Below are positions 98 through 47,612 of a DNA stretch of 64,000 nt, one piece after another. Source of the stretch: Escherichia phage AV110; sequence record OR352940.1; one strand, written 5' to 3'. The notes beneath the pieces were generated by a model, which had not been told where the DNA came from, made no database searches, and saw only the letters and a list, made by a program, of their open reading frames with translations. The position numbers were made by a program, and so were the translations under genes. Numbering within the stretch: position 1 is the stretch's first letter; each line of letters opens with the position of its first letter.

Positions 98-997
98 TTA
101 TTCCTCGATTACGACATCTTCATATTTAGGTATATTATACGGCGAAGAAATTAAAGCATTAAAGTAGATGAACTCACCAAGACCTGGATGGAATACTTCT
201 TCAGGATTTTCGAAATATTGAATTTTCGGACGCCCTTTAAGAATTTGATAGTACTCTGTTTTAGTTGGTTTAAAAATTCGAATCAGCGCTTCTTCAGGAT
301 ACTTATTTCTGTCGAAGCTATTATTTGGATCGGTTATATAAAGCGGTTGGCCTAATTGAATTGCACATTCAACCACTTGTTCAAAACGATAGCACGGGTC
401 ACTAATTCGAAATGGATGAAAAATACCATCTAGATAAATAGGAGCCAAATCACCTACAAGACGCTGCATGATGGAAGGACGTATAACTTTCTGCGTTACG
501 ATAATCTTATTACCATCTGCACCTGCGTTAACCAGCACTTCTTTTTGACGTTCATTCAACACAGTAGTTTGAAGTGAACGATTAACCGACAACATATCAG
601 TTTTTAAGAATTCATCAATATAAAAACGTGGTTTATTAGGGTCTGCAGTGATATTGAAATTGAATTCCACATCAAAAGCGCCGTCATATCCAGTGATATC
701 TGTGATTAGAAAATCACAGTCATAATAAGCAATTAATGAATCAACCACAAATCCATTTTCAGACCAGAAATATTTACGAGTGTTATACGCGTTATCTTTA
801 TACCATAATGGAACAAACTTAAATTCTGGAAAAAGACGTTCGCATTCTTTAATATCAGATGCATTACGTGGATATGTAATCACATCACCCGGATTAGCAC
901 GGTGCAAATGAAGTTGGAAGTTGCCATCCTTAAGGATAGCATACTGTCCAGTTTCATAAGACCGCATACTCAAGATTGGTACGCGGAAAATAGCCAT
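98..997 (-). CDS. hypothetical protein (299 aa); positional candidate for the hmC-DNA glycosyltransferase (T4 beta-gt slot)
   Basis: Long minus-strand ORF next to gene 42 homologue; no motif recognised; function inferred from synteny only. Confidence 0.55.
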   Translation of the reverse strand: MAIFRVPILSMRSYETGQYAILKDGNFQLHLHRANPGDVITYPRNASDIKECERLFPEFKFVPLWYKDNAYNTRKYFWSENGFVVDSLIAYYDCDFLITDITGYDGAFDVEFNFNITADPNKPRFYIDEFLKTDMLSVNRSLQTTVLNERQKEVLVNAGADGNKIIVTQKVIRPSIMQRLVGDLAPIYLDGIFHPFRISDPCYRFEQVVECAIQLGQPLYITDPNNSFDRNKYPEEALIRIFKPTKTEYYQILKGRPKIQYFENPEEVFHPGLGEFIYFNALISSPYNIPKYEDVVIEE

Positions 998-1713
998 TAG
1001 TCAAGGAATCCTTTAACATAATCAAAATCACGTTCAAACACATGGGCACTTACCATGGTATGAGTATAATCACCAACTTCTACACCGCATTCGTTAGCGA
1101 TATAATGAAGTAATTTTCCTTGGAGATAAAAATCCAACTGCATAACAACAGCACAGTTCTGAGAACGCATATGACAGTGGGTATAAAGCTTACCATCACG
1201 AATATAATAAGTCACTGAGTCAGTACATGGATATTCAAGTGTTTCGTCTGAATCAAGCAAAGCCTGATCAGAACTTTCTAGAATTTGGAACACAACTCTT
1301 CGGGAGTTAGGCTTCTCTTTAAGTTCTTTTAGAAGAGCTGGTAATTGAGCCGCAATGCGAGGACCATAGAAAGTGTTGAAGTTCGCCGGCAAAACATCTG
1401 ATTTTGGTTTAGAAATAAATTTAGCGACATTAGGATATGTCTTAAACGCTTCTTCTGCGTTGGTACCACCAGAAATCATAAACTTCCAGAAGTCTTCGGC
1501 ATATTCATAAGAGATGCGGTTAATACGTGGGTCGGTCATTTTGAATGATGATGGAGTGTCAACAACTACTGTCATAGACCCAATTTCATTACAACGTCCA
1601 ATACGAGAATCAGTTACGAATTCCGGGTTTTCTAAAATTTCACGATTGACTGCTTTAAATGCGGTTTGAAAATCTGCGGCTTTGATATATTTCATTGTGT
1701 TATGTTTTCCCAT
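997..1713 (-). CDS. 42: dCMP hydroxymethylase-like (thymidylate synthase superfamily)
   Basis: 238 aa; segment YPCTDSVTYYIRDGKLYTHCHMRSQNCAV resembles the T4 gp42 catalytic-Cys region as I recall it; sits upstream of gene 43 as in T4. Confidence 0.75.
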   Translation of the reverse strand: MGKHNTMKYIKAADFQTAFKAVNREILENPEFVTDSRIGRCNEIGSMTVVVDTPSSFKMTDPRINRISYEYAEDFWKFMISGGTNAEEAFKTYPNVAKFISKPKSDVLPANFNTFYGPRIAAQLPALLKELKEKPNSRRVVFQILESSDQALLDSDETLEYPCTDSVTYYIRDGKLYTHCHMRSQNCAVVMQLDFYLQGKLLHYIANECGVEVGDYTHTMVSAHVFERDFDYVKGFLD

Positions 1714-1755
1714 GTTTACCTCAATACAATTTATTATATACTCAATTCGTAAAGC

Positions 1756-1995
1756 TTATTTGAATTTCTTGACAATGTTGACATAACGTAAAGCTTCAGC
1801 ATCGATACTTCCAAGAACACTATGAAGAAATGCATCAGCGTAGTATTCCAATTGAACAGGTTCTTTAATCACTTTAGCCGCTTTAGTTTCAAACAGGCCC
1901 ATCAGGGCCTTTTTAAGAATTTGTTCATTAGTGTTCAGATTCATAGTCAAAATCTCTTCATTAAGTTGGTGGTTAAAAGTTTTTCTAGAAATCAT
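1756..1995 (-). CDS. hypothetical protein (79 aa)
   Basis: ORF in operon orientation; 4-nt overlap with next gene. Confidence 0.45.
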   Translation of the reverse strand: MISRKTFNHQLNEEILTMNLNTNEQILKKALMGLFETKAAKVIKEPVQLEYYADAFLHSVLGSIDAEALRYVNIVKKFK

Positions 1996-3152
1996 TCCGG
2001 GTACCTCAAAGCGTCATCAGAGTTAGTTATATCAATAATAGATATAGAGTTTTCTGCTAACCCGTTTTTAGATAATTGACGTTTATAATATCTTTCACAA
2101 TATGTACACGTCGTCCCGCAGATTTCATTAGCACAATCGAAATCTGGATGTCTGAACCACCTTTTTTCTAAAAAGCCATCTAACAAAGAGGTTTCAATAT
2201 TTACTGTATGTGAAAACTCAGTTTCGTTTTCAAGAGTGAAAATAGTCTCTAAAGGCTTCCACAGTTCTAACAAATTACCTTCAAACTTTTCAGAAGCGTA
2301 TGCTTCAAGAACTTTCAAAATGTAGTCTGTGCTACCTGTACGTCCTGAAACTTTGAATTGAGTGATACCAATATCATTATAAAGTTTCAAATCTTGAGGA
2401 CGAACAAAACGAGTTCTCAACCAGTTAAATGGGTCTGTATCACGAGCTTTAATACAGTGCTGCATAGGATATCCGTTTAAGGATTTAGCATCATCAGCTG
2501 TAACATCAGTACTATGGAAAATATAGCAAGAGTCACGATAGCTACAATGTGTTGTATACCCTTTACCAGCATTAGAACAGAACTCATTTACAAGAACTTC
2601 AAATATTATATTGTTCTTATTGCAAAACTCTGCTGCACGCTTCAGGAAAGAAACTGAACGGTTCTTATGAATTCCACAGCAGACCTTTTTGATATTATAT
2701 TGGTCATGCAAGTATTTGATTTGAGTTACAGCATCGACATGTAGAATTGTTGAAACTTCAATCTCAATGTCTTTATTGACTTCACGAACAATTTCCATAA
2801 CAACAGGGTTAGCGATAGTAATACGCCATACGCCTATTGACCAAAGATACTGAACATAATCCTGAATAGCTTTCTTCTTCCACTCAACTAGTTCTCTTTT
2901 TGAACCAGGATTTATCGTGTTGAGTGTATAGTTAAAGCAAATACCTAATTCGTTACAACGTTTAACGTAATCTTCTAACATCTTTTTGTCAACGTCAGGA
3001 AGCCTAAAATCAGGTCTGGCTGCTACAAAAGCCATTTCTCTTGTAGAGCCATATACTTCGTTTATCAAGCTATTAGGATAGGTTTTATTGAGCTCTACGA
3101 TTTTATCAAGAAGAGCTAAATCAAAATTTGTTCCGATTTTAAAAGTATTCAT
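1992..3152 (-). CDS. Cys-rich enzyme-like protein (386 aa) with C-terminal CxxxCxYC motif; function unknown
   Basis: Long ORF; C-terminal ...CANEICGTTCTYCERYY contains a CX3CX2C Fe-S-type motif with the aromatic residue typical of radical-SAM clusters, but at the C-terminus. Confidence 0.65.
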   Translation of the reverse strand: MNTFKIGTNFDLALLDKIVELNKTYPNSLINEVYGSTREMAFVAARPDFRLPDVDKKMLEDYVKRCNELGICFNYTLNTINPGSKRELVEWKKKAIQDYVQYLWSIGVWRITIANPVVMEIVREVNKDIEIEVSTILHVDAVTQIKYLHDQYNIKKVCCGIHKNRSVSFLKRAAEFCNKNNIIFEVLVNEFCSNAGKGYTTHCSYRDSCYIFHSTDVTADDAKSLNGYPMQHCIKARDTDPFNWLRTRFVRPQDLKLYNDIGITQFKVSGRTGSTDYILKVLEAYASEKFEGNLLELWKPLETIFTLENETEFSHTVNIETSLLDGFLEKRWFRHPDFDCANEICGTTCTYCERYYKRQLSKNGLAENSISIIDITNSDDALRYPE

Positions 3153-3211
3153 TTTTTTTGCATCTCACGTTAATTGATGCGATGGTTTTTTTGCAGGTCT
3201 TACTTAAATTA

Positions 3212-3613
3212 TTATAGATTCGGTTTATACGATTTAAATGTTTCGAATTCGCCTTTATTCATAAGAGCTTTGAATTCGTCAGGACGCATAGCTTTGTCGT
3301 CGATAATCCAATCATATACTGGTTTATGTGTTAGCAAATTATGGTACTTCAAGCCAATGTTTGCCAAGTTCTGAATCAGACTTGGGAGAATGTCAATTGC
3401 TATACGACCAGGACCTACTGACTTCATACCGCGAGCAGTGTAAAGCGTTATTGTATGCCCTGCATCATACAGAGCATTAATGGCAGACACCATTTCGACG
3501 TCCGGTTTGAAGTTCACATAATCACGATTGTTATTCCACTCTGTTATACAATCATCGACATCAAAACAAAGATTAAGCATGTTTTCTACACGGTGCATTA
3601 GATTCGTTCCCAT
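3212..3613 (-). CDS. small HAD-superfamily phosphatase-like protein (KdsC-like)
   Basis: 133 aa; motif FDVDDCIT matches HAD motif I (DxDx[T/V]). Confidence 0.6.
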   Translation of the reverse strand: MGTNLMHRVENMLNLCFDVDDCITEWNNNRDYVNFKPDVEMVSAINALYDAGHTITLYTARGMKSVGPGRIAIDILPSLIQNLANIGLKYHNLLTHKPVYDWIIDDKAMRPDEFKALMNKGEFETFKSYKPNL

Positions 3614-5283
3614 TGATGAGTGATATCGCCACCGATTGGACGATAAGAAACACCAGTTTCTTTATCAGTTAGTACCCATTTACCAGGATTTTTTGTAATC
3701 AGAGTAGCCGTTACAGGTTCTGCTACGTCATAACTAATAGAGCCGTCCTGAAGTACACGGCCCATGTTACGTAATTGCTTAGTCAGAAGTTCCATACCTT
3801 TATAATATGCGGCTACCGCTTTAAGTGGATTATTCTTGAAATAACCACCTAATGCAATCCAGATAATTGCTACAGCCAAATGATGATATTCATTAAACGA
3901 ACTCAGCTTTCCATATTTGTAAACTAATGGATTGATGTTAATAGTCACATTACAAGTTGTTTCATCAATAGTAAACTGTCCCCAGGTCGGATTAGCGTTG
4001 AATTCATCATAACCTGAAACAGCGTAAAGCACTTTAGCTTCGTCGTACAATTTCGGCCCGTAAATCTTGGTTTCGCCAAAATATCCACGAGGGTCGATAA
4101 ACTTGACTTCGCCGTTATCAGTAATCATAGTATTACTGAAGTTCGGGTCACCATGAATAACAGAGTACTGTCCCTGAGAACGGTTATGATAACGAATAAG
4201 GTGTTCTAAAGCTTGTTTCAGCATTGGCTTCAGACGTCCAATCTTAGTGTAGTTCACATGTGTGATTTTACCAAATGAATCAATCAATGGTTGAATGCTT
4301 TCACAACGATCAATAACTTTCGTATAGAATTCTTTAGTGAAATCACGACGAACAGTTTCAGGACTTACAAAATAAGTGTCTGCGCTGAATTTCAGTGCAT
4401 CTAAAATTGCATCAATAATTTGTGGACGAGCAAGACTTGATTTTGATTTAATATATTCAAATGCCGGCTTACCTTTAATGCGTTCCATTTCAAAGTTATT
4501 TTCATTAACAGAAACTAACTGAGGAACTGAATCTGATTTCACTTTCAAATACCACGAAATCTCATCTTTCTGAAGAGCTCGACCCTGTTCGGTTAATGCG
4601 AATTTAGTTACAGTTTCTTCGCCAATTTCAACTGCATTAAAACTACGGTTCAGTTCACGAACTTCATGGGCCTTTTCAAGTTTAGGCATATCACCAAGGT
4701 CGATGATATTCATAAGCTCTGATTTATTGAATGCGCCGCTGTAAAGGAATTCTACGAAATCACGTCCTTTGCAGTATTCATGAATTTCCTCATCGGTAGA
4801 ACCCATATAGAATTCCCAGTCTTTGAACTGATAAATTCCTACAACATTACCGCCTGTTTCACCTACATTAGTGATATTTTCACCATCGAAATTATACCGA
4901 CATTCATCACCCTTAACATAGATTGCGTTAACATTCCAAGACCAAGAACCAAAATCGGGAATAATATCACACCAGTTAACAATTACATTATGGCCGTCTA
5001 AATCTTTGTGTAATTTAGCAAGAGCATAAGCAGAACCATACGCTTCATCAACTGTACGAATAGTCACATTGAACCCTTCTTGCTCACAATAAGCTCGAAC
5101 AGTTTCAGCAAATTTTGAATGAACTACTACAATAATTTCATCTGCGCCAAGGTCAGAATAAATTGTATACAAATTGCTCAGAATAGTGTCTTGCTTATAG
5201 TTAACAAGCACCTTAGGAATATGATGCGTTATTGGATACAAACGAGTTGCCAGTCCAGCACCAAGAATAACAGCTTTTTTCAT
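3598..5283 (-). CDS. bifunctional sugar-1-phosphate nucleotidyltransferase / APH-ChoK-like kinase
   Basis: 561 aa; N-terminus MKKAVILGAGLATRLYPIT is the G-x-G-T-R-L NDP-sugar pyrophosphorylase signature; C-terminal half has HGDPNFSN...FIDPRGYFG (Brenner HGD kinase motif plus DFG-like). Confidence 0.8.
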   Translation of the reverse strand: MKKAVILGAGLATRLYPITHHIPKVLVNYKQDTILSNLYTIYSDLGADEIIVVVHSKFAETVRAYCEQEGFNVTIRTVDEAYGSAYALAKLHKDLDGHNVIVNWCDIIPDFGSWSWNVNAIYVKGDECRYNFDGENITNVGETGGNVVGIYQFKDWEFYMGSTDEEIHEYCKGRDFVEFLYSGAFNKSELMNIIDLGDMPKLEKAHEVRELNRSFNAVEIGEETVTKFALTEQGRALQKDEISWYLKVKSDSVPQLVSVNENNFEMERIKGKPAFEYIKSKSSLARPQIIDAILDALKFSADTYFVSPETVRRDFTKEFYTKVIDRCESIQPLIDSFGKITHVNYTKIGRLKPMLKQALEHLIRYHNRSQGQYSVIHGDPNFSNTMITDNGEVKFIDPRGYFGETKIYGPKLYDEAKVLYAVSGYDEFNANPTWGQFTIDETTCNVTININPLVYKYGKLSSFNEYHHLAVAIIWIALGGYFKNNPLKAVAAYYKGMELLTKQLRNMGRVLQDGSISYDVAEPVTATLITKNPGKWVLTDKETGVSYRPIGGDITHQWERI

Positions 5284-5324
5284 GTTGAAGTCCTCATTGG
5301 TAAGTAGGAGTATTGTACACTATT

Positions 5325-5468
5325 CTAGTTAAAGCATTCATACTTTGCCTGTAGACCAATCATAATCCATCCAATTACAAGTGTTGGAATCATTACCGGA
5401 GCCGTTAAGCTCCAGTAGATAGTCATGGCAAGCATCAATAGTAAAAGTCCTATTGTTATTGCTTTCAT
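5325..5468 (-). CDS. small hydrophobic membrane protein (47 aa), below ORF-track cutoff
   Basis: ATG overlaps stop of upstream SIS gene (ATGA); GAGG upstream; product MKAITIGLLLLMLAMTIYWSLTAPVMIPTLVIGWIMIGLQAKYECFN is a predicted TM peptide. Confidence 0.35.
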   Translation of the reverse strand: MKAITIGLLLLMLAMTIYWSLTAPVMIPTLVIGWIMIGLQAKYECFN

Positions 5469-6100
5469 TGTTCGCCTCGTAACATGGCACCTAGTGCACC
5501 ACCTGGATGGAACTTAAGGAAGTCATTAGAGGTAAATCCACGTTCAGACGAAAGGTTGATAGCGAACGTATCGATAAGCGCTAACAACAATGTAGTAGAC
5601 ATTGTCGGAGCTAAAGAGTTCTCGTCAACTTCTACCGCGATACCGGTACAGAACGTATAATCAAAAAGAGCTTCGTATTCTTGTGGAATGTCAGGGTTAC
5701 AATGTAACAGAATCTGTTTAACCTGAGGACGAATCATACGAAGATGTTTAGCAACACCTATCATTTCTTCAGTCTTACCAGAACGACTGATGTGAACTAA
5801 TACATCATTAGGTGCAATAAATCCTGCGTCACCATGAGAATAATGCCCAGTGTTCAAGTACATACTTGGGATACCGAGTGAAGCAAAAGTCTCGGAAGCT
5901 TTAGTTGCGATATTAGCGTTCTTACCAACACCTGTAATAATTACTCGGCTTTCATAATTACTAAGTCCCGGGCGTCGAAGAGTTTCTAGAATAGCATTAT
6001 AACGAGCAGGGTTTTGACTAATTACTTTAGCCATAGTGGCAAGAGATGAAGCTTGTTTTACGATTGCGTCAATAGCGATAGTGATTGGTGTAGTTTTCAT
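5465..6100 (-). CDS. SIS-domain sugar-phosphate isomerase, KdsD/GutQ (arabinose-5-phosphate isomerase)-like
   Basis: 211 aa; ITGVGKNANIATK and HYSHGDAGFI..ISRSGKTEE resemble KdsD SIS motifs; C-terminal FHPGGALG is KdsD-like; no CBS domains. Confidence 0.8.
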   Translation of the reverse strand: MKTTPITIAIDAIVKQASSLATMAKVISQNPARYNAILETLRRPGLSNYESRVIITGVGKNANIATKASETFASLGIPSMYLNTGHYSHGDAGFIAPNDVLVHISRSGKTEEMIGVAKHLRMIRPQVKQILLHCNPDIPQEYEALFDYTFCTGIAVEVDENSLAPTMSTTLLLALIDTFAINLSSERGFTSNDFLKFHPGGALGAMLRGEQ

Positions 6101-37883: not shown

Positions 37884-38419
37884 TGCATTCCAATCACAAA
37901 AAATTGAGGACGAGCAATACCGCCGCTGCAATATTTGCTTTTGCAACAGTGTTGGACTGTTTTGATATGGATGTCGTAAATCTTATCCATATCAGGAGCT
38001 TTAATAGGCTCGTCAATTATGTACAGAATACGAGAAAGCGTTAATCCACGGAATTTATATCCTTCATTACCAATAAAACTACGGACAGAATCAGTAAATA
38101 AACGGAATCGAATATCATCGCTAGAATAACGAGAAAATTCTTTTTCAATGTTGCCAGCAGAAATTTTAGAATAAGCTGAAGTATTAGAAAGAACAATAAC
38201 TGTTCCACCGTCATACAGCCAATTAACAGCAAAATTAGTTACTGCGGTCGATTTACCTGATTGTCTGCCGCCGTCTAAACGAAGTGTACAGTACTGCTTG
38301 AGTACGTCTTCAAATGGTGGGGCATAACCGTTCTTACAAATTTCTTCTACTCTAGCATCAGAATGGTGTGTAAAAGCATTCATCAGGGATAGATAAGGTC
38401 CAGTTAAAAATGTTCTCAT
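37880..38419 (-). CDS. small P-loop NTPase (179 aa)
   Basis: Walker A GGRQSGKST; Walker B-like LYIIDEP. Confidence 0.55.
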   Translation of the reverse strand: MRTFLTGPYLSLMNAFTHHSDARVEEICKNGYAPPFEDVLKQYCTLRLDGGRQSGKSTAVTNFAVNWLYDGGTVIVLSNTSAYSKISAGNIEKEFSRYSSDDIRFRLFTDSVRSFIGNEGYKFRGLTLSRILYIIDEPIKAPDMDKIYDIHIKTVQHCCKSKYCSGGIARPQFFVIGMQ

Positions 38420-38747
38420 ATTATTTCTCTTAAGGTTGGGGCCATTCCATGGCGCATGAATTGTCCATTTCTGTATTTACCCATTACCGCACTTGGGCTC
38501 GACCTTATTACAGGTTGGCGGGAATCCCTCATAGAATCATGAGGTCCAGGTTGTTCCCATTTTATTTGAATGTAAATATTTTTGCCACGCGTTTACGAAT
38601 TATACCAAAAAACACGTGGCAATTCACAGTATTCGGCGATTAAATGTTGATCAGCAAATTTAGATACTAAAGTCAAATTAATATAAGTCATTTACCCATC
38701 CAAGTAATTATGAATATACTATCACAATTCTAGGAGAAAGTAAACTG

Positions 38748-39050
38748 TTATTTACCTTTAATTACTTTAGCTGCTTCGATAGCCGCTTGCTGAAGGTCAT
38801 CCATAGACATACCGAATTTAGAAGCAAAGTTATCAATTTTCTTTTCGACAGCATTCAAAGGCTTGGCCTGTTTACCTTCATTAGCGCCAGGAAGAGCGAG
38901 AATACGCTCTTTGTCAATATAAAGGCTTACAAGTTTCTTACGGTCTTTATCGGACAAATCATGAAATGAATGGGCCTTTTTATTTATAGCGGCTTCTAAT
39001 TTACCTGCACTCACTCGAGCTTCAGTAATAAATTCTTGATATGTTTTCAT
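38748..39050 (-). CDS. capsid-targeted internal protein (IPII/IPIII-like)
   Basis: N-terminal capsid-targeting sequence MKTYQEFITE (T4 IP consensus MKTYQEFIAE, cleaved by prohead protease after Glu). Confidence 0.65.
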   Translation of the reverse strand: MKTYQEFITEARVSAGKLEAAINKKAHSFHDLSDKDRKKLVSLYIDKERILALPGANEGKQAKPLNAVEKKIDNFASKFGMSMDDLQQAAIEAAKVIKGK

Positions 39051-39076
39051 TTTTGTTCCTATTGTTTTAATTTATG

Positions 39077-39391
39077 TTATTCTTTAGGGAAGTTTTTAGA
39101 GTATGCGTCATAAAGTTTATTACCGATGCGACGGAAAACTTTAGCTGCAAAACGGTTTTCAGGGTTTTTAATCATGATTTGCATCATGTAAGTTCCTGCA
39201 TCCGAAAGAGCTTCTTCATAGTACCCATTAATTTCTTTAAGAGTCCTACGTTTACCACCAGGACCATCGACAGTAATTTTCCATTTACCTGTAGAAGTGC
39301 GGCTCGGTGGCTCAACTTGTTCAATCCAAATATAACCACCTTCAACGCGTTGGTTGGCGGATTCTGCAATAAATTCTTTATACGTTTTCAT
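39077..39391 (-). CDS. capsid-targeted internal protein
   Basis: N-terminal MKTYKEFIAE CTS. Confidence 0.65.
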   Translation of the reverse strand: MKTYKEFIAESANQRVEGGYIWIEQVEPPSRTSTGKWKITVDGPGGKRRTLKEINGYYEEALSDAGTYMMQIMIKNPENRFAAKVFRRIGNKLYDAYSKNFPKE

Positions 39392-39454
39392 TTTTGTTTC
39401 CTTGTTTGTTTTGATAGAGTAATTATACCATATTAATACTTAAGCGTAAACAAT

Positions 39455-39715
39455 TTAAGCTTTACCGCCAGAAATAATTCCGAAGTTGTTAAAATCGTAT
39501 CCAATATCGTCAACATCTACTTTAGGACTTGCTACAACATAAGCAATTTCACTACGTTTTGCATAGGTGTTGATTTCTTTACCATCGCCACCTAAGAAAG
39601 AATACCCATTACGTTTTAATGAGCCAAAGTCTTCCGCATCACCAATGAAAGCTTTAACTTTAAATTTAGGACCTTTGGCATCTGCTTCAGCGATAAATTC
39701 TTGATACATTTTCAT
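39455..39715 (-). CDS. capsid-targeted internal protein
   Basis: N-terminal MKMYQEFIAE CTS. Confidence 0.6.
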   Translation of the reverse strand: MKMYQEFIAEADAKGPKFKVKAFIGDAEDFGSLKRNGYSFLGGDGKEINTYAKRSEIAYVVASPKVDVDDIGYDFNNFGIISGGKA

Positions 39716-39721
39716 TTTTCC

Positions 39722-40135
39722 TTAGTAAATTGATTTACCATAGTATTTGTACCAAGTCGGACGTTGAGCAATTTTTTCATCTAAGCGTGCTTGACTTATC
39801 GCAATGGACGCTTCGGACGGGACATAATTATTACGAAATTCGGCAGGGATGTCGGAAATATCCTGGACAGTCGTGTCCTTGATTTTGAAACCACGTTTCA
39901 AGCATTCAGCGATTAGCTCGATTTGTCGTAAACGTAAAAATTCGAGTTTGTCGTAAAAGAATGTTACGTGACCTGTGCCTAAGATAAATGTTGGAGAGAT
40001 TTTAAAATCCTTTACACGTTTACCGTTTTGAACATGTTTACGGACTGCACCAAATACGCGTGGTAATTCACGATACTCAGCCATAAGATGTTGGTCGGCC
40101 AGTTCAGAAACAAGTGTTAAATTGATACGGGTCAT
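39722..40135 (-). CDS. denV: endonuclease V (pyrimidine-dimer DNA glycosylase) DenV
   Basis: Start at [35 protein letters not shown]; near-identical to T4 DenV as recalled. Confidence 0.92.
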
Positions 40136-40193
40136 AATTTCCTCCAAGTAGTTGATGAATGTATAGTATCAAAACCCTTGGAGGAAGTAAACA

Positions 40194-40475
40194 CTATTTT
40201 TCTGAAGCGCCTGAAATATATTTTTCAAGACGTTGTTTCATTAGCGAGCCGTTCTTAGCGATTTCTTCCGGTTTATCGCACATACGCAACAAGGCTTCAA
40301 GCTTAGCGATATCGCTGGTACGTTCAAATTTGCGAGTATCTATCTTACTAGCAAGTTCAGAAATACGTGCTAATAGACTTTCGGCTTCAACCAAAGCTGC
40401 ACCTAGCTTAGTTGCAAATGTGTCAGTAGCTTCGTTAAGAATAGATTCTGATAAAAATTCACTATATGTTTTCAT
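40194..40475 (-). CDS. capsid-targeted internal protein
   Basis: Start trimmed to [13 protein letters not shown]; ATG overlaps lysozyme stop. Confidence 0.6.
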
Positions 40476-40960
40476 ATATACGCTTTCCAAGTTCCTGTTT
40501 TAAATGTTGAGATTACTCGTTTCGCGCGATTAGGTGTCTGACGATACCATTTAGATTGGGCTAGATTTACTGCCGCTTCATCCCAACGTTTCTGTTGAAG
40601 CATACGAAGAGAATTAGTAAAACCGGCGACGCCTGCTACACCCATTTGGAAGACCATATTGACCAATGCACAACGACGAACTGCATCTAAAGAATCATAC
40701 ACCGGTTTAAGTTTAGCATTACCCAAGATTCCGCGAACGGCTTTATCAACGTCTTCATTAAATAGCTTTTCAGCCTCATCAAGGGTAATTGTACCGTTGC
40801 ATTTACGGCCGATCATTCTGTCAAGTTCAGCTTTAGCTACGGCTAAAGACGGGTTCTTTGTTACTAAATGGCCAATGCCAATCGTCCAAAAGCCTTCAGT
40901 GTCTTTGTATAAAGTCAGTCTAAGACCTTCGTCATTACGAAGCATTTCAAATATATTCAT
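40472..40960 (-). CDS. e: endolysin (T4 lysozyme e homologue)
   Basis: Start at [32 protein letters not shown]; catalytic Glu/Asp context; close to T4 lysozyme. Confidence 0.93.
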
Positions 40961-40994
40961 AATACCTCCCACGTTTATAGGAGGTATTTATTAC

Positions 40995-41453
40995 TTATAG
41001 GAGTTTAGTGAGCACCTTATATAATGATTTGCCCATTACATATTCCCATTGAGAAGGTTTAATTAAAGCGAATGCATCAAATTCAGGAATCTGTCGTCCG
41101 TCCGGGAATGTATGATAGGAATTACAAACACTGTTTCTGAATTGCTCGTGCTCTACAGGGATGGTATATTGGAACAGATGAATATTCTTATTGTCTGAGT
41201 AATGATGTTCGCCTAGGTCTTTCAGGAAGGCAGGGTCATATTGTGTAAACCCAGTTTCTTCTTCGCATTCACGAATAGCGGCTTCGATAGGAGATTCGCC
41301 AGGTTCGACACGGCCTTTAGGAATATCCCACCGATGAGCTAATGCACCTTTAGGACGAGAACCAGTTACACGCCCCATGAATAATTCTTTATCTTCGGTA
41401 AGGAAAATAATACCGGCTGATAGTTCTTTCACTTTATTTTTCTTACTCATCAT
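40995..41453 (-). CDS. nudE: Nudix hydrolase NudE
   Basis: Nudix box GRVEPGESPIEAAIRECEEETG. Confidence 0.85.
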   Translation of the reverse strand: MMSKKNKVKELSAGIIFLTEDKELFMGRVTGSRPKGALAHRWDIPKGRVEPGESPIEAAIRECEEETGFTQYDPAFLKDLGEHHYSDNKNIHLFQYTIPVEHEQFRNSVCNSYHTFPDGRQIPEFDAFALIKPSQWEYVMGKSLYKVLTKLL

Positions 41454-41694
41454 CTCGGTCCCATGATTTGGCCATTAATTCGGACATAAATTCTTCAATG
41501 CGCGTTTCTTTAGATGGACTTTCACTATTAGAGACCGCAAGTTTGTAATCTGCAATAGGACAGAACATATCAAGGTCCATATTAAGGACGTCTTTGATTT
41601 TTTCTTCTGACACATCTTTATCGTATGTGTACAGATAACTATCACATGATTCTGATTTAATGTAAATTGCTATACTCATCTCAAATTCCTGCAT
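41443..41694 (-). CDS. hypothetical acidic protein (83 aa)
   Basis: ORF. Confidence 0.45.
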   Translation of the reverse strand: MQEFEMSIAIYIKSESCDSYLYTYDKDVSEEKIKDVLNMDLDMFCPIADYKLAVSNSESPSKETRIEEFMSELMAKSWDRDDE

Positions 41695-42167
41695 TCGGTA
41701 ATAAAACGTTCAACTTCATTATTCTTGGCTTTTATCTTGTCTTTATGTTCTTGTAAACTACTTTTAATAAGATTAATAATGATGGCGGCGGTACCGCCGC
41801 CAATGATGCCACCAACAACACTTATTATACTAGATGCTAATAAGATAGCAATAATATCAACAAAACCGAAAGAACTCACCTTAGTACTAAAAAACCATAC
41901 CGACGGTACAAATATAATCCATCCTGTTATCCATTGGCACTTATTGAAAAACTTTTCAAGCTCAGCTTGAGTTGTTCGTATTACTTCATCGATAGGTTGA
42001 TATCCATTAATGTATCTGTTCACAATAATACCTGCTGGCTGGTCGATTTTAAATTCTTGGCAAATATGTTTCACTAAGTAGAATGGACAGGATGTCCATT
42101 CTACTGAATAGTATGAAATACCTTCGTTGCCATCGTCTATATTAGACCAATATGTTTTGTTAATCAT
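41676..42167 (-). CDS. membrane protein, FIKECR-tail family member
   Basis: TM and glycine-zipper segment; C-terminus ...ERFITECRNLR. Confidence 0.5.
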   Translation of the reverse strand: MINKTYWSNIDDGNEGISYYSVEWTSCPFYLVKHICQEFKIDQPAGIIVNRYINGYQPIDEVIRTTQAELEKFFNKCQWITGWIIFVPSVWFFSTKVSSFGFVDIIAILLASSIISVVGGIIGGGTAAIIINLIKSSLQEHKDKIKAKNNEVERFITECRNLR

Positions 42168-42853
42168 TACCAGCCTTCCATAGGGAATTCCAGATAAACT
42201 TGGGCATTGACACGAATTTCATTGGTAATCTTTTTAACTCGGTCTGTATTACGAGATACACGTCCGAACCAACGCCATCCATTACTAATTGCACGAGAAC
42301 CAGTGTGCCATGTTTGCCAATCAAACTGAAGAAGAGTACGATCTGGAGCTTCCCATTTCTCTAGTTCACCTTTTTCGATTTTTTCGAGGACTTCTTTGTG
42401 CCACTGGCGATAGATAAGTTCGCCATCAGGAATCTGACTGAACTCTGCAGTTCCTGTTGCAAAATGAGTAGGACACACATCAGCGTTAACAAGACCAAGA
42501 ATGTGTTCAGACAAATAGCGAGGATTGTCATAGTCAGGTTGTCCTGCAGTAATAAAGTGTTGACCAACTGGAATATCCGGGCGTGGTACATCGTCATGGT
42601 GATAACCTGGGATAGCAGGGTACCAACCAGGCATCAGCATGTGGACTCGTGAATCAAATACAACCTGGTCGGTGTTCCAATCATCTGGCAAGTTCATGAT
42701 GAAGCTGCGAGTAATAGGACCGCCGTTATTATAAGCAAATTCTAAACTACAGTTGAAGAACATAGGTTCGTTTTTAATCTGGTCGTTTTTAATCGCATGA
42801 GCAAAACCACCTACTGCACGAGCTTGACTATTAAACACTTTAGAACTATTCAT
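42167..42853 (-). CDS. hypothetical protein (228 aa)
   Basis: Long ORF; His/Asp-rich stretch GYHHDDVPRP; no family assigned. Confidence 0.55.
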   Translation of the reverse strand: MNSSKVFNSQARAVGGFAHAIKNDQIKNEPMFFNCSLEFAYNNGGPITRSFIMNLPDDWNTDQVVFDSRVHMLMPGWYPAIPGYHHDDVPRPDIPVGQHFITAGQPDYDNPRYLSEHILGLVNADVCPTHFATGTAEFSQIPDGELIYRQWHKEVLEKIEKGELEKWEAPDRTLLQFDWQTWHTGSRAISNGWRWFGRVSRNTDRVKKITNEIRVNAQVYLEFPMEGW

Positions 42854-42854
42854 A

Positions 42855-43160
42855 TTATTTTCCTCGACATTCTTTAATGAAATTTTCTAGATTGGTAGAT
42901 TCAATAGCTTTTTTACGAGCTTCTGCGTGTTCTTCTTCGGACAATTTACGTTTATAATTGACCCAGACATTATTGTCGAAACCAGACGTGGCATATAATA
43001 ACAAAGCTCCAACGAATAGCAAAAATGGTGATAAAAATATACAACCAGGAACACCATCCATACTGTAAGCCTTTTGTAATACTGCAACAGAAAGAGTTGC
43101 GTAAAAAGGTGATGCAAGTATTGTTAAAAGACCAATTCGATTGGTTTCTGTTAATTTCAT
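42855..43160 (-). CDS. membrane protein, FIKECR-tail family member
   Basis: Two TM segments; C-terminus ...ENFIKECRGK. Confidence 0.5.
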   Translation of the reverse strand: MKLTETNRIGLLTILASPFYATLSVAVLQKAYSMDGVPGCIFLSPFLLFVGALLLYATSGFDNNVWVNYKRKLSEEEHAEARKKAIESTNLENFIKECRGK

Positions 43161-43188
43161 AATATTCTCCTCATGTTTTAATAGGACT

Positions 43189-43218
43189 ACTATAACATAG
43201 TCCTATAATTGTGTAAAC
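43189..43218 (-). promoter_or_regulatory. sigma70-type early promoter (GTTTAC-N18-TATAGT) in conserved palindrome cassette
   Basis: ATAGGACTACTATAACATAGTCCTAT cassette; rc gtaaac at 43213-43218. Confidence 0.5.
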
Positions 43219-43230
43219 AGTTTTGTGAAG

Positions 43231-44187
43231 TTATTTGAAAGGTTTTACCATATGGAAATTTTGTTTGAAACGTTTTACGTAATCGTCATGTCCTAAGCTT
43301 TGGTACATACTTACAACTTTGCTGTAGTTTTCCCAGGCGTATTCACGGAACCAACCGGAGGTGATGCTTGTGCAGACTTTTTCTAATGCCATCATGAAAC
43401 TGGCTTCAGGGTTAATTTTAAAGTCATTAGGAATCTGAGAACGTTCTAATGCTAGTACACATGATTCTTCATATACACCGGCCAATTTGACCATTTCTGG
43501 TAACGATTCGAACTTCTCGCGTGAGGTCATGACTTCAGAACCGTCTTTCATATAAAATGTATACGCTGGGCGGTCTGTTAGCGCAATGGCTTCGTGAATA
43601 GTATCATGGTCATATGTATAGATGTCATCTTTAAAGAACGCACTTTTAGAAGTGTCAAGAACTGGGTGAGCATAGTTCAAGGTTTCTTTCTGGCGTTTCA
43701 GCATAATTTCAGTAAGTTCATCGTTCAGTGTAACACCTTTACCACGAAGATACTGAATATGGTTCATAGTCTTTAAAAAGAATGGATTATTTTTCTTGAA
43801 ACGATGAGACATCTTAATTGCAAGACATATCTCAGGAGTTGCCCAGTAAAACCCGTTCAAACGGTCTTTAGACAAATTTTTCTCGGCGTATTTTAAAAGG
43901 TCATAAGAAGACGTGAAATCTTCAGGAGTGAGTTCACCGACTAATTCACGGACATTAGTGATTGCCGGAACAATATATGCTTCAAAATGAGTTTCGCGTC
44001 CATTATGGAAGCATTTGAAAACTTGGACATCAGGGTTATCTTGGTGAACATATACACCCATCATTTGATTTTTGAATGCATTCCAAGAACATTGGTCCGC
44101 AATAAAGTCCCAATCACTATTTTTGATAGCGCTAGAATCAATAAGACCGTGATAGTGAAGCGCACGAGAACCAATAACTAACATCAT
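43231..44187 (-). CDS. hypothetical protein (318 aa)
   Basis: Long ORF; no motif recognised. Confidence 0.55.
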   Translation of the reverse strand: MMLVIGSRALHYHGLIDSSAIKNSDWDFIADQCSWNAFKNQMMGVYVHQDNPDVQVFKCFHNGRETHFEAYIVPAITNVRELVGELTPEDFTSSYDLLKYAEKNLSKDRLNGFYWATPEICLAIKMSHRFKKNNPFFLKTMNHIQYLRGKGVTLNDELTEIMLKRQKETLNYAHPVLDTSKSAFFKDDIYTYDHDTIHEAIALTDRPAYTFYMKDGSEVMTSREKFESLPEMVKLAGVYEESCVLALERSQIPNDFKINPEASFMMALEKVCTSITSGWFREYAWENYSKVVSMYQSLGHDDYVKRFKQNFHMVKPFK

Positions 44188-44215
44188 AATATTTTCCTCG
44201 GATTAATTCATTAAC

Positions 44216-44467
44216 TTAAATTTCACGACATGCGATATCATATTCATCCCAGAGGTCGTCATGTGAAGCCTCTACCAATGGAACGATTGTACCGTTTATG
44301 TCTTCATTATAAGGACAAATTGTACAGTGCGCATCTTCGAATCGGATGCCTTTGTGTTCAGATTTTTTATAACGCATATCGAATATCTTTGCAAACTTTT
44401 CACGAGTAATAGTTTTAGCAACTACTTCGGTTCCGATACTTTCGTAATAAATCATTGTGGACTCCAT
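44216..44467 (-). CDS. hypothetical protein (83 aa)
   Basis: ORF downstream of early promoter. Confidence 0.45.
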   Translation of the reverse strand: MESTMIYYESIGTEVVAKTITREKFAKIFDMRYKKSEHKGIRFEDAHCTICPYNEDINGTIVPLVEASHDDLWDEYDIACREI

Positions 44468-44483
44468 TTGTTTTGATAGGACT

Positions 44484-44513
44484 ACTATAACATAGCCCTA
44501 TCTTGTTGTAAAC
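44484..44513 (-). promoter_or_regulatory. sigma70-type early promoter in conserved palindrome cassette
   Basis: ATAGGACTACTATAACATAGCCCTAT; rc gtaaac 44508-44513, actata 44484-44489. Confidence 0.5.
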
Positions 44514-44517
44514 TGTT

Positions 44518-44715
44518 TTAGCAAGAATAACTAGATGATACCCAGCCTTGAACAGTGATACTATTGTGGGATAATGAGATCGCGTCCTGGATATTCAGAC
44601 CTGCGTTATCTTCAATCCATAATGTAACTTCTTCGCGTTCTTCTGTTGCAATTTGGAACAGGTTTTCCAGGGCAGCTACTGCCGTACGTACAGCACAATC
44701 TAATTCACGAGACAT
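44518..44715 (-). CDS. small protein, GWVSSSxxC-tail family member A
   Basis: C-terminus ...VQGWVSSSYSC. Confidence 0.45.
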   Translation of the reverse strand: MSRELDCAVRTAVAALENLFQIATEEREEVTLWIEDNAGLNIQDAISLSHNSITVQGWVSSSYSC

Positions 44716-44724
44716 ATTGTTTCC

Positions 44725-44997
44725 TTAGCAAGTGTGAGAAGATGCAACCCAACCACCAGTTTCGAGGCTCAGGTTGTAGTCGTATTGGTAAACGTCAGCC
44801 CATTCAGCATAGCCATTTTTTGTACAACGTTCAAGATCGGCTTTAAGATGTCCGGGTGAATGATAGGTTCCACCCATACCATAAGCTGGGTACAAGTTGA
44901 ATGTTGTGTTTTGTTTATCAGCAATTTCTTTGGCAGCCTCAATAGCTGCATAGATTTTTGCTACAGCTTCAGCCAGTTCGGTTTGTTCTTTAGACAT
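44725..44997 (-). CDS. small protein, GWVSSSxxC-tail family member B
   Basis: C-terminus ...GGWVASSHTC; shares YG.G.TY.(S/P)(P/K)G with member C. Confidence 0.5.
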   Translation of the reverse strand: MSKEQTELAEAVAKIYAAIEAAKEIADKQNTTFNLYPAYGMGGTYHSPGHLKADLERCTKNGYAEWADVYQYDYNLSLETGGWVASSHTC

Positions 44998-45006
44998 AAT
45001 GATTCC

Positions 45007-45312
45007 TTAGCACAACGCAGAAGACGAAACCCAAGCACCTTCAGTAATAACGTATCCATTACCTTCACGCTTAACATCGCCGCCATTATTTTCAATTTCA
45101 TCTTTCATCCACTGGGATACGATTTCACCCTTAGGATAATAAGTACGACCGCTACCATAATCACCTACAGAAAATGATACGGCATATTGGTCTGCGATCT
45201 TTGTTGCTTCTTCTTCGATACGTTCAGCTTGATTCAGAAGTTTATAAATTGCATCTGAAGCGGATTTGGCATCATTAAACTCTGGTACTTTAATTTCAAT
45301 AATCTTACTCAT
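45007..45312 (-). CDS. small protein, GWVSSSxxC-tail family member C
   Basis: C-terminus ...EGAWVSSSALC. Confidence 0.5.
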   Translation of the reverse strand: MSKIIEIKVPEFNDAKSASDAIYKLLNQAERIEEEATKIADQYAVSFSVGDYGSGRTYYPKGEIVSQWMKDEIENNGGDVKREGNGYVITEGAWVSSSALC

Positions 45313-45668
45313 TTTCTACATTCCTTAATAAAGTTTTCGATTGTTTCATTTTCACGTCTAGCTAGGAGTTCATTATAACTAATCATTTGAGAAGCGTAAA
45401 CCTTTTTATTTTTCTTGTTGTGGTTTATAAAACCGTAGTAAAAATAGACTACAGTACAAAATGATGCGATGGATGCAAAGGCTTGGGTATACCGTAAGTC
45501 CTGCCATTGGTCTGTGAATCCACCAGTGTTCCCTATAAATCCTAACACAACGCCGTCAATAAGAAATCCAACTAATCCAAAGGCAAATCCCATGCCAATA
45601 CTCATAATAAAAATTAGAATGTTCTCACCAAGAGAAGGCCATACGGTTAAGAGTTGTGGCTTTTGCAT
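45309..45668 (-). CDS. membrane protein, FIKECR-tail family member
   Basis: TM segments; C-terminus ...ENFIKECRK. Confidence 0.5.
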   Translation of the reverse strand: MQKPQLLTVWPSLGENILIFIMSIGMGFAFGLVGFLIDGVVLGFIGNTGGFTDQWQDLRYTQAFASIASFCTVVYFYYGFINHNKKNKKVYASQMISYNELLARRENETIENFIKECRK

Positions 45669-46072
45669 CTTATCTCCTTAACGAATTCCATAGCTTCTTC
45701 ATATTCATACTTTTTAACAGCTTCATCATACTGAGCTTGGGCTTTTGCGCACTGAACTTTCCACTCACGAACTCGAGCTCTGTGATGACGGCCTTGGTGC
45801 CAATATCCTACCCAATTAATAGGCATTAATAAAAACGGTACAATAAGTGGTGCGACGAACATTAATGAAAACGCTGCATCGGACGATATAACTTTATTGG
45901 AATCTAAAACAGCTCCTATAATCATAAAGATTAAAAATGCTAAAGCTAAAATAGGGCCAAATAGTACTTCGTTTGGGATTAATTTACGTTTGTATTCGTA
46001 TGCCCAGGGCTTACTTGGCATGTATAGGGTTGGCTTTGACATATTCTCTACATTCCATAATAAATTGCTCAA
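45647..46072 (-). CDS. membrane protein, FIKECR-like tail
   Basis: TM segments; C-terminus ...MEFVKEIRCKSHNS. Confidence 0.45.
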   Translation of the reverse strand: MSNLLWNVENMSKPTLYMPSKPWAYEYKRKLIPNEVLFGPILALAFLIFMIIGAVLDSNKVISSDAAFSLMFVAPLIVPFLLMPINWVGYWHQGRHHRARVREWKVQCAKAQAQYDEAVKKYEYEEAMEFVKEIRCKSHNS

Positions 46073-46634
46073 GGATTAAATTGTTAGTGAAATTAGGACT
46101 AACAACCATAGTTTCATAAAGCGCATCAATAGCACTTAAAGCATCAACTCTTTTAAGCAAAGGCTTGCCTTCATACATAGTTTCAGAATCGACGATTAAA
46201 GTGAAGTAGTATTTTTTATTATTGACCAGAACTTCTGTATCAATATAAAACATGTTAGACCTTAAAAGCTTATCTCTAAAACCATAATAATCTTTAGAGC
46301 GTTCGCTGATATATTCCCATTCGGTGTTTAAACAACAAACAGACCATGTAGGAGCAACGAAATCGGTGAATCTAATATCATGGTCTGCAACTAGTTTAGC
46401 AATAGCTCCGATATCATGAATCATAATACCTGGGGCTAATAAAGATTTTCTGCTATGGCTAGCTGTTTTCTCAGTAGTCTCATAAGAAGACGACCAGTAC
46501 CATTTACGCCCAGTTGCAACATATCGTAATGAATCAACTAAAGACGTAGGTGGATTTACCTTATCTCGGAACTCTTCGAACATTGAGTCAATATCATTAT
46601 TTTGGTTTCGCATGTTAACTCCTTTATTATCCAA
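46011..46634 (-). CDS. hypothetical protein (207 aa) with FIMECR motif near C-terminus
   Basis: ...LILEQFIMECREYVKANPIHAK. Confidence 0.5.
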   Translation of the reverse strand: MDNKGVNMRNQNNDIDSMFEEFRDKVNPPTSLVDSLRYVATGRKWYWSSSYETTEKTASHSRKSLLAPGIMIHDIGAIAKLVADHDIRFTDFVAPTWSVCCLNTEWEYISERSKDYYGFRDKLLRSNMFYIDTEVLVNNKKYYFTLIVDSETMYEGKPLLKRVDALSAIDALYETMVVSPNFTNNLILEQFIMECREYVKANPIHAK

Positions 46635-46662
46635 AAGGAGGACCGGAGTCCTCCGTATTATT

Positions 46663-47271
46663 TTATTTCAAAGAGTTAATATATTCTTGTACATCAGCAG
46701 AAGTGGTTTCAACGCCGGCTGGAGTGCCATTGAACGTTTCAACACGAGTCAGAGTGTCTTCGATATCAACCTTAGTCAGTGCAGCGATTTCAATTACATC
46801 ATCGGCCGTAGAGATACCAAGGGCATTGGCTGCTCGAGTTTCACGAATGTATTCGAGTTTGATTGCCAGGTTCTGACGAGCATCGTCAAGTTCAACCACC
46901 TTACGAGCAATTTCAATTCGCATAGCGGCATACCCGTCAGCTTTTGTATTAAGTTGTTCGGCAGTTCGACGATACAGAAGACCAAGCTTAGCATGCATGG
47001 TAACATCTTGTCCTTCAGCCAGGAGCTTACGAATTTCACGTTCCTTAGAAGCGGCTTGCTTGTTCTTTTCATTAACAAGTTCGCGAATACGTTTTTCTTC
47101 ATTAATAGATTTAACAGAAGCCGTTTTTAGTTCTTTGATTTGGGTAATCAACTTATCTGCAGCTGCGTTATACTGTTCTTCGACAGTCAGATTTTTAGCC
47201 ATAGCAGTACCCAGTTTAGTGCGGATGAATTCAACAAGTTTCTTCAGTGTGTTCATATTATTACCTTTCAA
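46663..47271 (-). CDS. coiled-coil protein (possibly PspA/IM30-like)
   Basis: ~200 aa, largely helical/coiled-coil composition; family assignment tentative. Confidence 0.5.
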
Positions 47272-47326
47272 TTGGTGGTTTATTATCCAACGAGAGCATT
47301 ATACTCTGCTCTCAAGAGTTTGTAAA

Positions 47327-47554
47327 TTATTTTTTAATCAAATTGACATAAAACTTGGCGTCTTCGGGGTGCATGCCTTCGCAGTATTCTTCAACCATGA
47401 ACTTCTTAACAGCTTCATAAGGACCACTCAGATTAAGCTCAGTTGCCCAGAACTTGGAATCTTGGACTGAATCGATACGAACTTCGGGGTGGCGGTTGCG
47501 AATAACTTCTTCTGTGTATTCATAATCAACGACATCAATATTAACTTTAGCCAT
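47327..47554 (-). CDS. hypothetical protein (75 aa)
   Basis: ORF downstream of early promoter. Confidence 0.45.
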   Translation of the reverse strand: MAKVNIDVVDYEYTEEVIRNRHPEVRIDSVQDSKFWATELNLSGPYEAVKKFMVEEYCEGMHPEDAKFYVNLIKK

Positions 47555-47582
47555 TTTGTTTTCCTCTTGATTTGATAGGACT

Positions 47583-47612
47583 ACTATAACATAAACTTAC
47601 TTAGATGTAAAT
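47583..47612 (-). promoter_or_regulatory. sigma70-type early promoter in conserved palindrome cassette
   Basis: GATAGGACTACTATAACATAAAC...; rc gtaaat 47607-47612, actata 47583-47588. Confidence 0.45.

Follow-up and report, generated by a model that had tools for sequence, protein, structure and literature searches.

In the T-even phages, the loci of the internal proteins (IPs) are reportedly polymorphic: Repoila, Tetart, Bouet and Krisch are said to have described in 1994 (EMBO J 13:4181) ten IP open reading frames (ORFs) that share a conserved leader of ~11 residues and have promoter/terminator flanks. In the same account, the flanking promoter/stem-loop sequences are reportedly proposed to mediate shuffling, and the name Ip10 is said to originate there. 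The inhibitor-nuclease pairs formed by T4 IPs and GmrSD are reportedly the subject of the work of Bair, Rifat and Black in 2007 and of Rifat et al. in 2008. The polymorphism of the IP loci was restated by Rao and Black (2010). T4 Ip1, Ip2 and Ip3 each inhibit one variant of the type IV nuclease GmrSD, with no cross-protection among them, a result that supplied the phenomenon with a mechanism (Silas et al. 2025, PMC12373910). The capsid-targeting sequence (CTS) packages even foreign proteins (PMC3012670), and IPIII is active in the cytoplasm without its CTS (PMC9391042). Here, we analyzed a window of 64,000 nucleotides (the whole stretch of DNA under study) from Escherichia phage AV110 (OR352940.1), which sequence comparison places in Mosigvirus, as an RB69-like T4-type phage. 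Six ORFs in this window, all on the minus strand (-), start with MK[TMS]Y.EF[IL]; four of them lie within 38748-40475, the fifth is found at 48452-48916, and the sixth, ipI, at 51900-52187. The six ORFs are likely to encode T4-type internal proteins, that is, cassettes whose anti-defence products would be packaged, processed and injected. The phenomenon itself is already known; the idea of injected IPs restates the 1994 description, and the genes are found in hundreds of deposited genomes.

The AV110 locus resembles the loci of the 1994 description, as reported, in the two sites (e-denV and 57B-tRNA), in the unrelated small ORFs, and in the shared leader. By synteny, the IP genes other than ipE (5 of the 6) lie at these two T4 loci. 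A distinction is a third site, located directly after rnaC, which holds ipE; its flanks are two copies of a terminator and not a promoter-stem-loop pair. With respect to function, AV110 IpI and IpII are orthologous to the T4 inhibitors in the IPI*/GmrSD(CT596) and Ip2/GmrSD(ECOR21) pairs (88% identity for IpI, and 93% over 100 residues for IpII), and would inhibit the same nucleases, judging from this identity. T4 also has an Ip3/GmrSD(ECOR17) pair; AV110 is without IpIII, and four of its cargoes are without a known target. Unlike T4, in which the DNA carries glucosyl-hydroxymethylcytosine (glucosyl-hmC), AV110 is predicted to carry arabinosyl-5-hydroxycytosine in its DNA instead.

The leader is the feature that unites the six ORFs. 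A six-frame regular-expression scan of the 64 kb for MK.Y.EF[ILV] returned six matches, exclusively in these ORFs, whereas 200 mononucleotide shuffles gave 0 matches. In the alignment with T4 IpII and IpIII, the leaders of which are both MKTYQEFIAE, positions M1, K2, Y4, E6 and F7 are invariant across all six ORFs and the two T4 proteins. The 30-nt leader DNA, which itself forms a repeat family (D3-D5), varies among the copies mainly at synonymous sites (ACA/ACG/ACC, TAT/TAC, ATC/ATT/ATA, TTA/TTG). The third codon positions vary while the peptide is kept; therefore, selection acts on the leader peptide and not only on the DNA repeat. The T4 prohead protease gp21 cuts after the consensus (L/I)-x-E. 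In five of the AV110 proteins, this motif, considered as a motif only, ends at residue 10 (ITE|A, IAE|S, IAE|A, LSE|S and LTE|Q). IpI has no such motif at residue 10 (FISP), and in this protein LTE|A ends at residue 19; the solved IPI* chain (PDB 2JUB) begins at IpI residue 20, matching the predicted LTE|A cut. A second predicted site, LNE|A at residue 15, is found in ipA, and in the ipE proteins of Tequatrovirus the leader is longer and contains two cleavage motifs (MKSYAQFLNEAVLNE|AS).

Proceeding from the e side of the main array, the first IP gene is ipA (40194-40475 (-)), which encodes a 93-residue homologue of RB69ORF127c with LSE|S at residue 10, belongs to phrog_3499 ('internal head protein'), and is represented in 496 phage records. 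The 86-residue ipB protein (39455-39715 (-); leader MKMYQEFIAE) is homologous to RB69ORF125c and belongs to phrog_2667, also 'internal head protein' (217 records); RB69ORF125c and RB69ORF127c are labelled internal head protein in both RefSeq and PHROGs. Ip10 (39077-39391 (-); 104 residues, MKTYKEFIAE; phrog_3966; 189 records) carries an annotation of similarity to Ip10 of phage Pol (CAA84455), and this name is given in the JS09, SP18 and PP01 records. IpII (38748-39050 (-); 100 residues, MKTYQEFITE) matches phrog_7857 with E=4.5e-55. The ipE gene (48452-48916 (-)) encodes 154 residues starting with MKSYAEFLTE|Q and belongs to phrog_2280, 'unknown function' (511 records). The ipI product (51900-52187 (-)) has 95 residues, the leader MKTYKEFISP, and a predicted 76-residue IPI* following the LTE|A cut at residue 19. 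Its match to the Pfam family IPI_T4 (PF11634) has E=1.4e-50 and 169.6 bits against a cut-off of 25, with residues 20-95 covering profile positions 1-76, and the same residues match IPI* in PDB 2JUB with E=6e-42.

Beyond residue 10, the six proteins are without significant pairwise similarity (the best blastp match has E=0.021 over 22 residues), and they fall into six separate PHROG families. This best match, between ipE and IpII, was considered as a sign of homology beyond the leader and rejected, given that hhalign of the mature-part profiles yields a probability of 0.3%. Hence three claims of the original prediction, which was made from the sequence alone, agree with the analysis: six ORFs carry the T4 capsid-targeting sequence (at the same coordinates, with the match to the IpII and IpIII leaders and none in the 200 shuffles), the parts downstream of it are unrelated according to blastp, profile comparison and PHROG families, and the ORF at 51900 is ipI. 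The predicted mature parts are 76-144 residues long (76 for ipB), with an isoelectric point (pI) of 9.0-9.7 for IpI, IpII, Ip10 (9.6) and ipE, and of 6.3-6.4 for ipA and ipB (6.4). The ORFs of ipA, ipB, Ip10 and ipE are intact and 95-100% conserved in well over 100 phage records each, and their farther full-length homologues, at 47-77% identity, retain the leader. None of these four proteins has a Pfam match or a PDB sequence match. For Ip10, a CsgH/Ig-like fold was considered and rejected, as both hits (Pfam CsgH, E=0.074; PDB 2N59, E=0.79) are below threshold; its AlphaFold model, built from 3 sequences, has a pLDDT of 48 and is unreliable. The note in the SA79RD record that ipA is the C-terminal part of IpIII was likewise rejected because the alignment is limited to the 11-residue leader.

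By analogy with T4, the CTS of ~10 residues would send each of these proteins into the scaffolding core of the prohead, where a gp21-type protease would cut it after (L/I)-x-E. The cut would fall at residue 19 for IpI and at residue 10 for the other five. With the leader removed, the small products of 76-144 residues would remain in the head with the DNA and be injected along with it. In the cell, the injected IPs would bind and neutralise early-acting host nucleases before phage gene expression. The role of IpI and IpII as GmrSD-family inhibitors is close to certain, given how similar they are to their T4 counterparts. By extension from these two, the most likely role of ipA, ipB, Ip10 and ipE is the inhibition of further variants of these defences, and the motif together with the genomic context makes their packaging well supported.

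The main array at e-denV has the order e, ipA, denV, ipB, Ip10, IpII, denV remnant, vs.8, both in the window and in JS09, and the stop codon of e overlaps the start of ipA (ATGA). The cluster of four IP genes that was initially proposed holds insofar as the four ORFs are present, but it is split by a complete denV gene (endonuclease V, 39722-40135 (-), 92% identity to T4 denV), which lies inside the array and is not an IP, and the last cassette is followed by a remnant of denV. This 5' remnant (38593-38691 (-)) consists of 32 codons followed by a frameshift and divergence, and corresponds to the coding sequence JS09_060 in JS09; the JS09 record cites phage Pol CAA84453 for the denV fragment and CAA84455 for Ip10. 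The remnant and the 55 bp before it align to the ipII-to-denV junction of T4, and the same promoter/stem-loop sequence precedes the remnant and the intact denV. As read from these alignments, the denV remnant is a mark of the ancestral, T4-like ipII-denV order and of past recombination. Because the remnant follows the ipII-denV junction of T4 while T4 reads e-IpIII-IpII-denV, the Mosigvirus array seems to combine two ancestral gene orders that would have recombined in the denV/promoter region.

The cassettes appear to be self-contained units, each with a ribosome-binding site, the CTS and the cargo, flanked by promoter/stem-loop or terminator repeats. Upstream of denV, a GTTTAC-type early-promoter-like sequence overlaps a stem-loop (40139-40193 (-), repeat family D6, z=-3.0, where z compares the folding of the element with that of shuffled sequences). 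The GTTTAC-type element recurs after ipII (38692-38747) and after ipE (about 48342-48385). In the ipB-Ip10 gap, an early promoter-like site (39422-39450 (-)) reads TTTACG N17 TATAAT, with 10/12 matches and a TG extension; the SA79RD record annotates a promoter at the same position. Both flanks of ipI carry elements of the PeSL (promoter-early stem-loop) type, which fold far more stably than shuffled sequences. The upstream one (52210-52257 (-), family D1, z=-3.3) combines TTTACA N17 TACTAT at 52250-52222 with a stem-loop, and the one directly downstream (51855-51902 (-), D1/D2, z=-5.0) combines TTTACA N17 TATAGT at 51895-51867 with an 11-bp stem. The 48-nt family D1 comprises six copies in 39410-52257, both ipI flanks included. 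PeSL-like repeats of 48-75 nt are also located in the e.x hyperplastic region (43177-43224, 44472-44519 and 47571-47618), the others being at 39410, 51855 and 52210. The AV110 elements are like the described PeSL (PMC2839356, PMC4122927) in having a TTTACW-N17-TAYWAT site, a stem-loop and a Shine-Dalgarno sequence, and in being repeated in hyperplastic regions beside indels, a likeness at the level of sequence only; unlike PeSL, several AV110 copies have the stem-loop overlapping the -10 element and not upstream of the promoter. Arbiol et al. (2010, PMC2839356) and Comeau et al. (2014, PMC4122927), who described the PeSL elements, themselves connected them with what had been observed at the IP loci in 1994.

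The shared flanks and the shared 30-nt leader would serve as recombination handles, and relatives would therefore differ in the number and order of cassettes. Such differences are found, in a comparison that rests partly on record annotations. For example, Shf125875 is without Ip10 and has Ip7 beside IpI, phi25-307 and W143 have IpIII added, and the array of p000v ends in IpIII. In moskry, the array ends in a different CTS protein of 110 residues (MKTYQEFITEVTLSAEQKAAIEE..., moskry locus 489-818 (-)), annotated as hypothetical; the same MKTYQEFITEVTLSAEQKAAIEE cargo occupies the last slot in phi25-307 (494-871 (-)), where an upstream start call hides the leader. In JS09, an in-frame deletion within ipB has left a product of 38 residues, in which the leader and the C-terminal 23 residues are preserved (JS09 locus 2557-2673 (-)), and PHROGs lists this stub as a family of its own, phrog_35655. 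IP cassettes are also found in Tequatrovirus phages with glucosyl-hmC DNA (Ip10 with 96% identity in PP01, ipE with about 76% in RB32), and the whole array is present in W143, which is filed under Tequatrovirus. Taken at face value, this distribution looks like a shared cassette pool exchanged across genera.

The ipE gene lies apart from both IP loci, at the third site after rnaC. The structured region upstream of it is the homologue of T4 rnaD/rnaC (T4 species 2 and 1; 49045-49305 (-)), with ~95% identity to T4 and a tRNA-like T-arm; no Rfam family was found there at E<=1, and the Rfam search of 47500-52500 gave two tRNAs only. The terminator of rnaC, a hairpin with a T-run, occurs in two copies, an upstream one (48957-48988 (-)) that forms the left bracket of the cassette, and a downstream one (48414-48445 (-)) that immediately follows the stop codon of ipE; one hairpin is an imperfect direct repeat of the other. 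The original prediction of a cassette bracketed by terminators was correct. Between the upstream copy and ipE, at 48946-48953 (-), there is AATAAATA, which differs at a single position from the late promoter of T4, TATAAATA, and lies 30 nt before the ipE start. T4 has a single terminator copy and no gene here, and its post-terminator sequence continues as that of AV110 does after the second copy. In RB32, the site is filled, with an exact TATAAATA between the first terminator copy and the ORF, and the RB32 annotators recorded a '34 bp imperfect direct repeat' at this place. Compared in this way, ipE is a candidate late-promoter/CTS-ORF/terminator cassette at a duplicated terminator, and T4 represents the corresponding empty site.

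In the databases, ipE is not labelled as an IP: among the matches listed (40 of the 511 phage records), it is hypothetical, gp36 or unannotated in 40/40, and all of the named members examined in its two protein clusters are hypothetical. The AlphaFold model of ipE (pLDDT 75) consists of a helical N-domain (residues 10-75), a low-confidence linker rich in Lys, Pro and Ala, and a helical hairpin; a Foldseek comparison with PDB gave no neighbour, the hits being limited to helical bundles of the ferritin-like kind (E>0.3, TM score of about 0.25). The exhaustive HMMER search of 1.8 billion representative proteins produced ten hits with no annotated domain, mostly short CTS-type relatives that are truncated or chimeric fragments; one of the ten, an unrelated repeat protein, was judged spurious. 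In the informative hits, which are distant relatives of low identity, the N-domain is retained along with a start that resembles the CTS (MLKFNEFLAE, MLEYSEFLKE, MKFKEFLIE). Two of them (P0013 and P0015) have different C-terminal halves, whereas a third (P0012) is homologous over nearly the full length. According to these comparisons, the ipE family is a modular, leader-bearing set, and its source is probably T4-like phages. A protein of 94 residues from a metagenome contig (P0008) has a trna.3-like N-terminus joined to the C-terminal 31 residues of ipE and, judging by these two parts, is a natural recombinant of a trna.3 homologue and ipE. We tentatively suggest, as a possibility short of an even chance, that ipE and its relatives could be an unrecognised family of injected IPs at a third site, arranged as a late-promoter/CTS-ORF/terminator cassette, in which a conserved helical domain of ~50 residues behind the leader (KAAAI.AI.AGKYSY..S.E.RF.F.RD.KAEGF) is combined with differing C-terminal halves in T4-like phages that are more distant, and which might counter a host defence not yet tied to any IP, possibly acting on DNA with either glucosyl or arabinosyl cytosine.

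It should be noted that several observations weigh against the view that all six ORFs encode packaged, processed and injected anti-defence proteins. The genes for the prohead protease and the scaffold (21 and 22) sit beyond the 64-kb window; both are expected in the full AV110 genome, as complete genomes of T4-type Mosigvirus phages share 95-98% identity with the window. None of the six cassettes has an exact late promoter TATAAATA in front of it, and the sole exact TATAAATA in these IP loci falls inside ipII. Structure prediction, which had been proposed as a check for the mature parts, provided no functional clue, given the lack of a PDB neighbour for ipE and the pLDDT of the Ip10 model. For ipA, ipB, Ip10 and ipE, we infer the packaging, processing, injection and anti-defence activity by analogy with T4, and a literature search turned up no Mosigvirus virion proteome. 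Finally, ip4-10, a test set that by its numbering includes Ip10, showed no reproducible inhibition of five additional active GmrSD systems (PMC12373910); therefore, the uncharacterised cargoes may be directed at a class of targets other than GmrSD. Still, the anti-defence reading of IPs, as originally put forward, is the accepted one (PMC3012670, PMC12373910).

The ip4-10 result leads to the alternative that fares best, namely, that the uncharacterised cargoes are injected effectors whose targets are not restriction enzymes but, for instance, host transcription, toxin-antitoxin systems or abortive-infection sensors, in which case the analogy with GmrSD would be misleading. We regard it as rather doubtful. 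Besides the ip4-10 result, it is favoured by the absence of any fold or domain match that would constrain function. In addition, T4 injects the enzyme Alt, too, so that injected cargo is not limited to nuclease inhibitors. Conversely, the three IPs whose targets are known all act on a single enzyme family, the five extra active GmrSD systems tested are a small part of a very diverse family, and the cargoes, given their small size and lack of domains, do not qualify as enzymes.

Another possibility is that the proteins are packaged but mainly structural, with small basic proteins neutralising the DNA charge and aiding genome condensation, packaging or ejection. The basic pI of 4 of the 6 mature parts (IpI, IpII, Ip10 and ipE) is compatible with such a role, as are the about 1000 IP molecules in T4 heads, the lysines of which contact DNA phosphates (PMC3012670). 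However, ipA and ipB are near neutral, all three T4 IPs have specific defence targets, and a bulk charge role leaves both the unrelated sequences and the rapid turnover of cassettes in close relatives unexplained, which makes the structural explanation unlikely. Least of all do we favour the explanation that not all of the four uncharacterised ORFs encode functional IPs, the shared 5' end being a recombination scar (leader and ribosome-binding site carried along as cassettes were shuffled) and the products decaying or unexpressed: debris is present at the locus (the denV remnant and, in JS09, the shortened ipB) and the leader DNA is a repeat family, but the ORFs are intact and highly conserved across more than 100 records each, their homologues at 47-77% and even the distant ipE relatives (MLKFNEFLAE, MLEYSEFLKE) retain the leader or a CTS-like start, and the peptide is kept despite synonymous codon differences, so that the scar explanation is very improbable.

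The original prediction also held that the other cargoes were uncharacterised and matched to the differently modified DNA of this phage. The first statement stands for the remaining targets but not for IpII, since T4 IpII inhibits GmrSD(ECOR21), a target reported in 2025 and equated with BrxU by Silas et al. (PMC12373910), and it has to be qualified for Ip10, which has been named and tested. With respect to the second, an arabinosylation cluster is indeed present at 98-6100 (-) and corresponds to RB69 gp48-gp55, which make arabinosylated 5-hydroxycytosine (PMC13326640). The AV110 cluster includes a thymidylate-synthase homologue (997-1713 (-)), a U32 peptidase-like gene (1992-3152 (-)), an NTP-transferase (3598-5283 (-)) and an SIS isomerase (5465-6100 (-)). 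The matching of cargoes to this modification is unsupported because the same cassettes occur in glucosyl-hmC phages (PP01, W143, RB32), and these few cases suggest that the set of cassettes does not follow the type of DNA modification. The Mosigvirus phage NP is sensitive to BrxU, which cleaves its ara-modified DNA in vitro (PMC13390438); therefore, the presence of an IpII orthologue in AV110 makes sense.

The gene order in the window is T4-like: vs.8, the IP/denV region, e, nudE, the e.x genes, rnaC/rnaD, the tRNAs, trna.2-4, ipI, 57B, 57A and gene 1. Positions 38400-41000 show 98% identity to phages AV117, JS09 and pEK20, and positions 41000-54000 show 95-96% identity to MM02, Shf125875 and others; the exact 154-residue ipE and 86-residue ipB proteins are present in phages AV110 and AlbertHofmann. 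The tRNA genes at 50204-50383 (-) are only two (Arg-TCT and Met-CAT), compared to eight in T4. T4 and RB32 have tRNA-Arg and rnaD side by side, but in AV110 the two are separated by two ORFs at 49300-50188 (-). The first encodes a 178-residue T5orf172/MUG113 (GIY-YIG-like) protein, the longest call of which (GTG at 50278) overlaps the tRNA, and the second encodes 122 residues with no Pfam match. This pair is probably an insertion of a mobile endonuclease.

The locus adds no new concept, as the principle and three targets were already known. New in detail are the denV gene inside the array together with the denV remnant at the T4-like position, the whole-cassette differences among close relatives, and the location of ipE between two rnaC terminators, as well as the finding that the widespread ipE cassette is without an IP label in any record examined. 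The analysis lists, in order, the four orphan cargoes that an arabinose-modified phage encodes, of which ipE is unflagged as an IP by databases, and the contrast between the filled and the empty site at the rnaC terminator is a tidy example of cassette movement. T4-type phages are widely used in phage therapy; host immunity encounters their IPs before any other phage molecules, and IPs help to set the host range of these phages.

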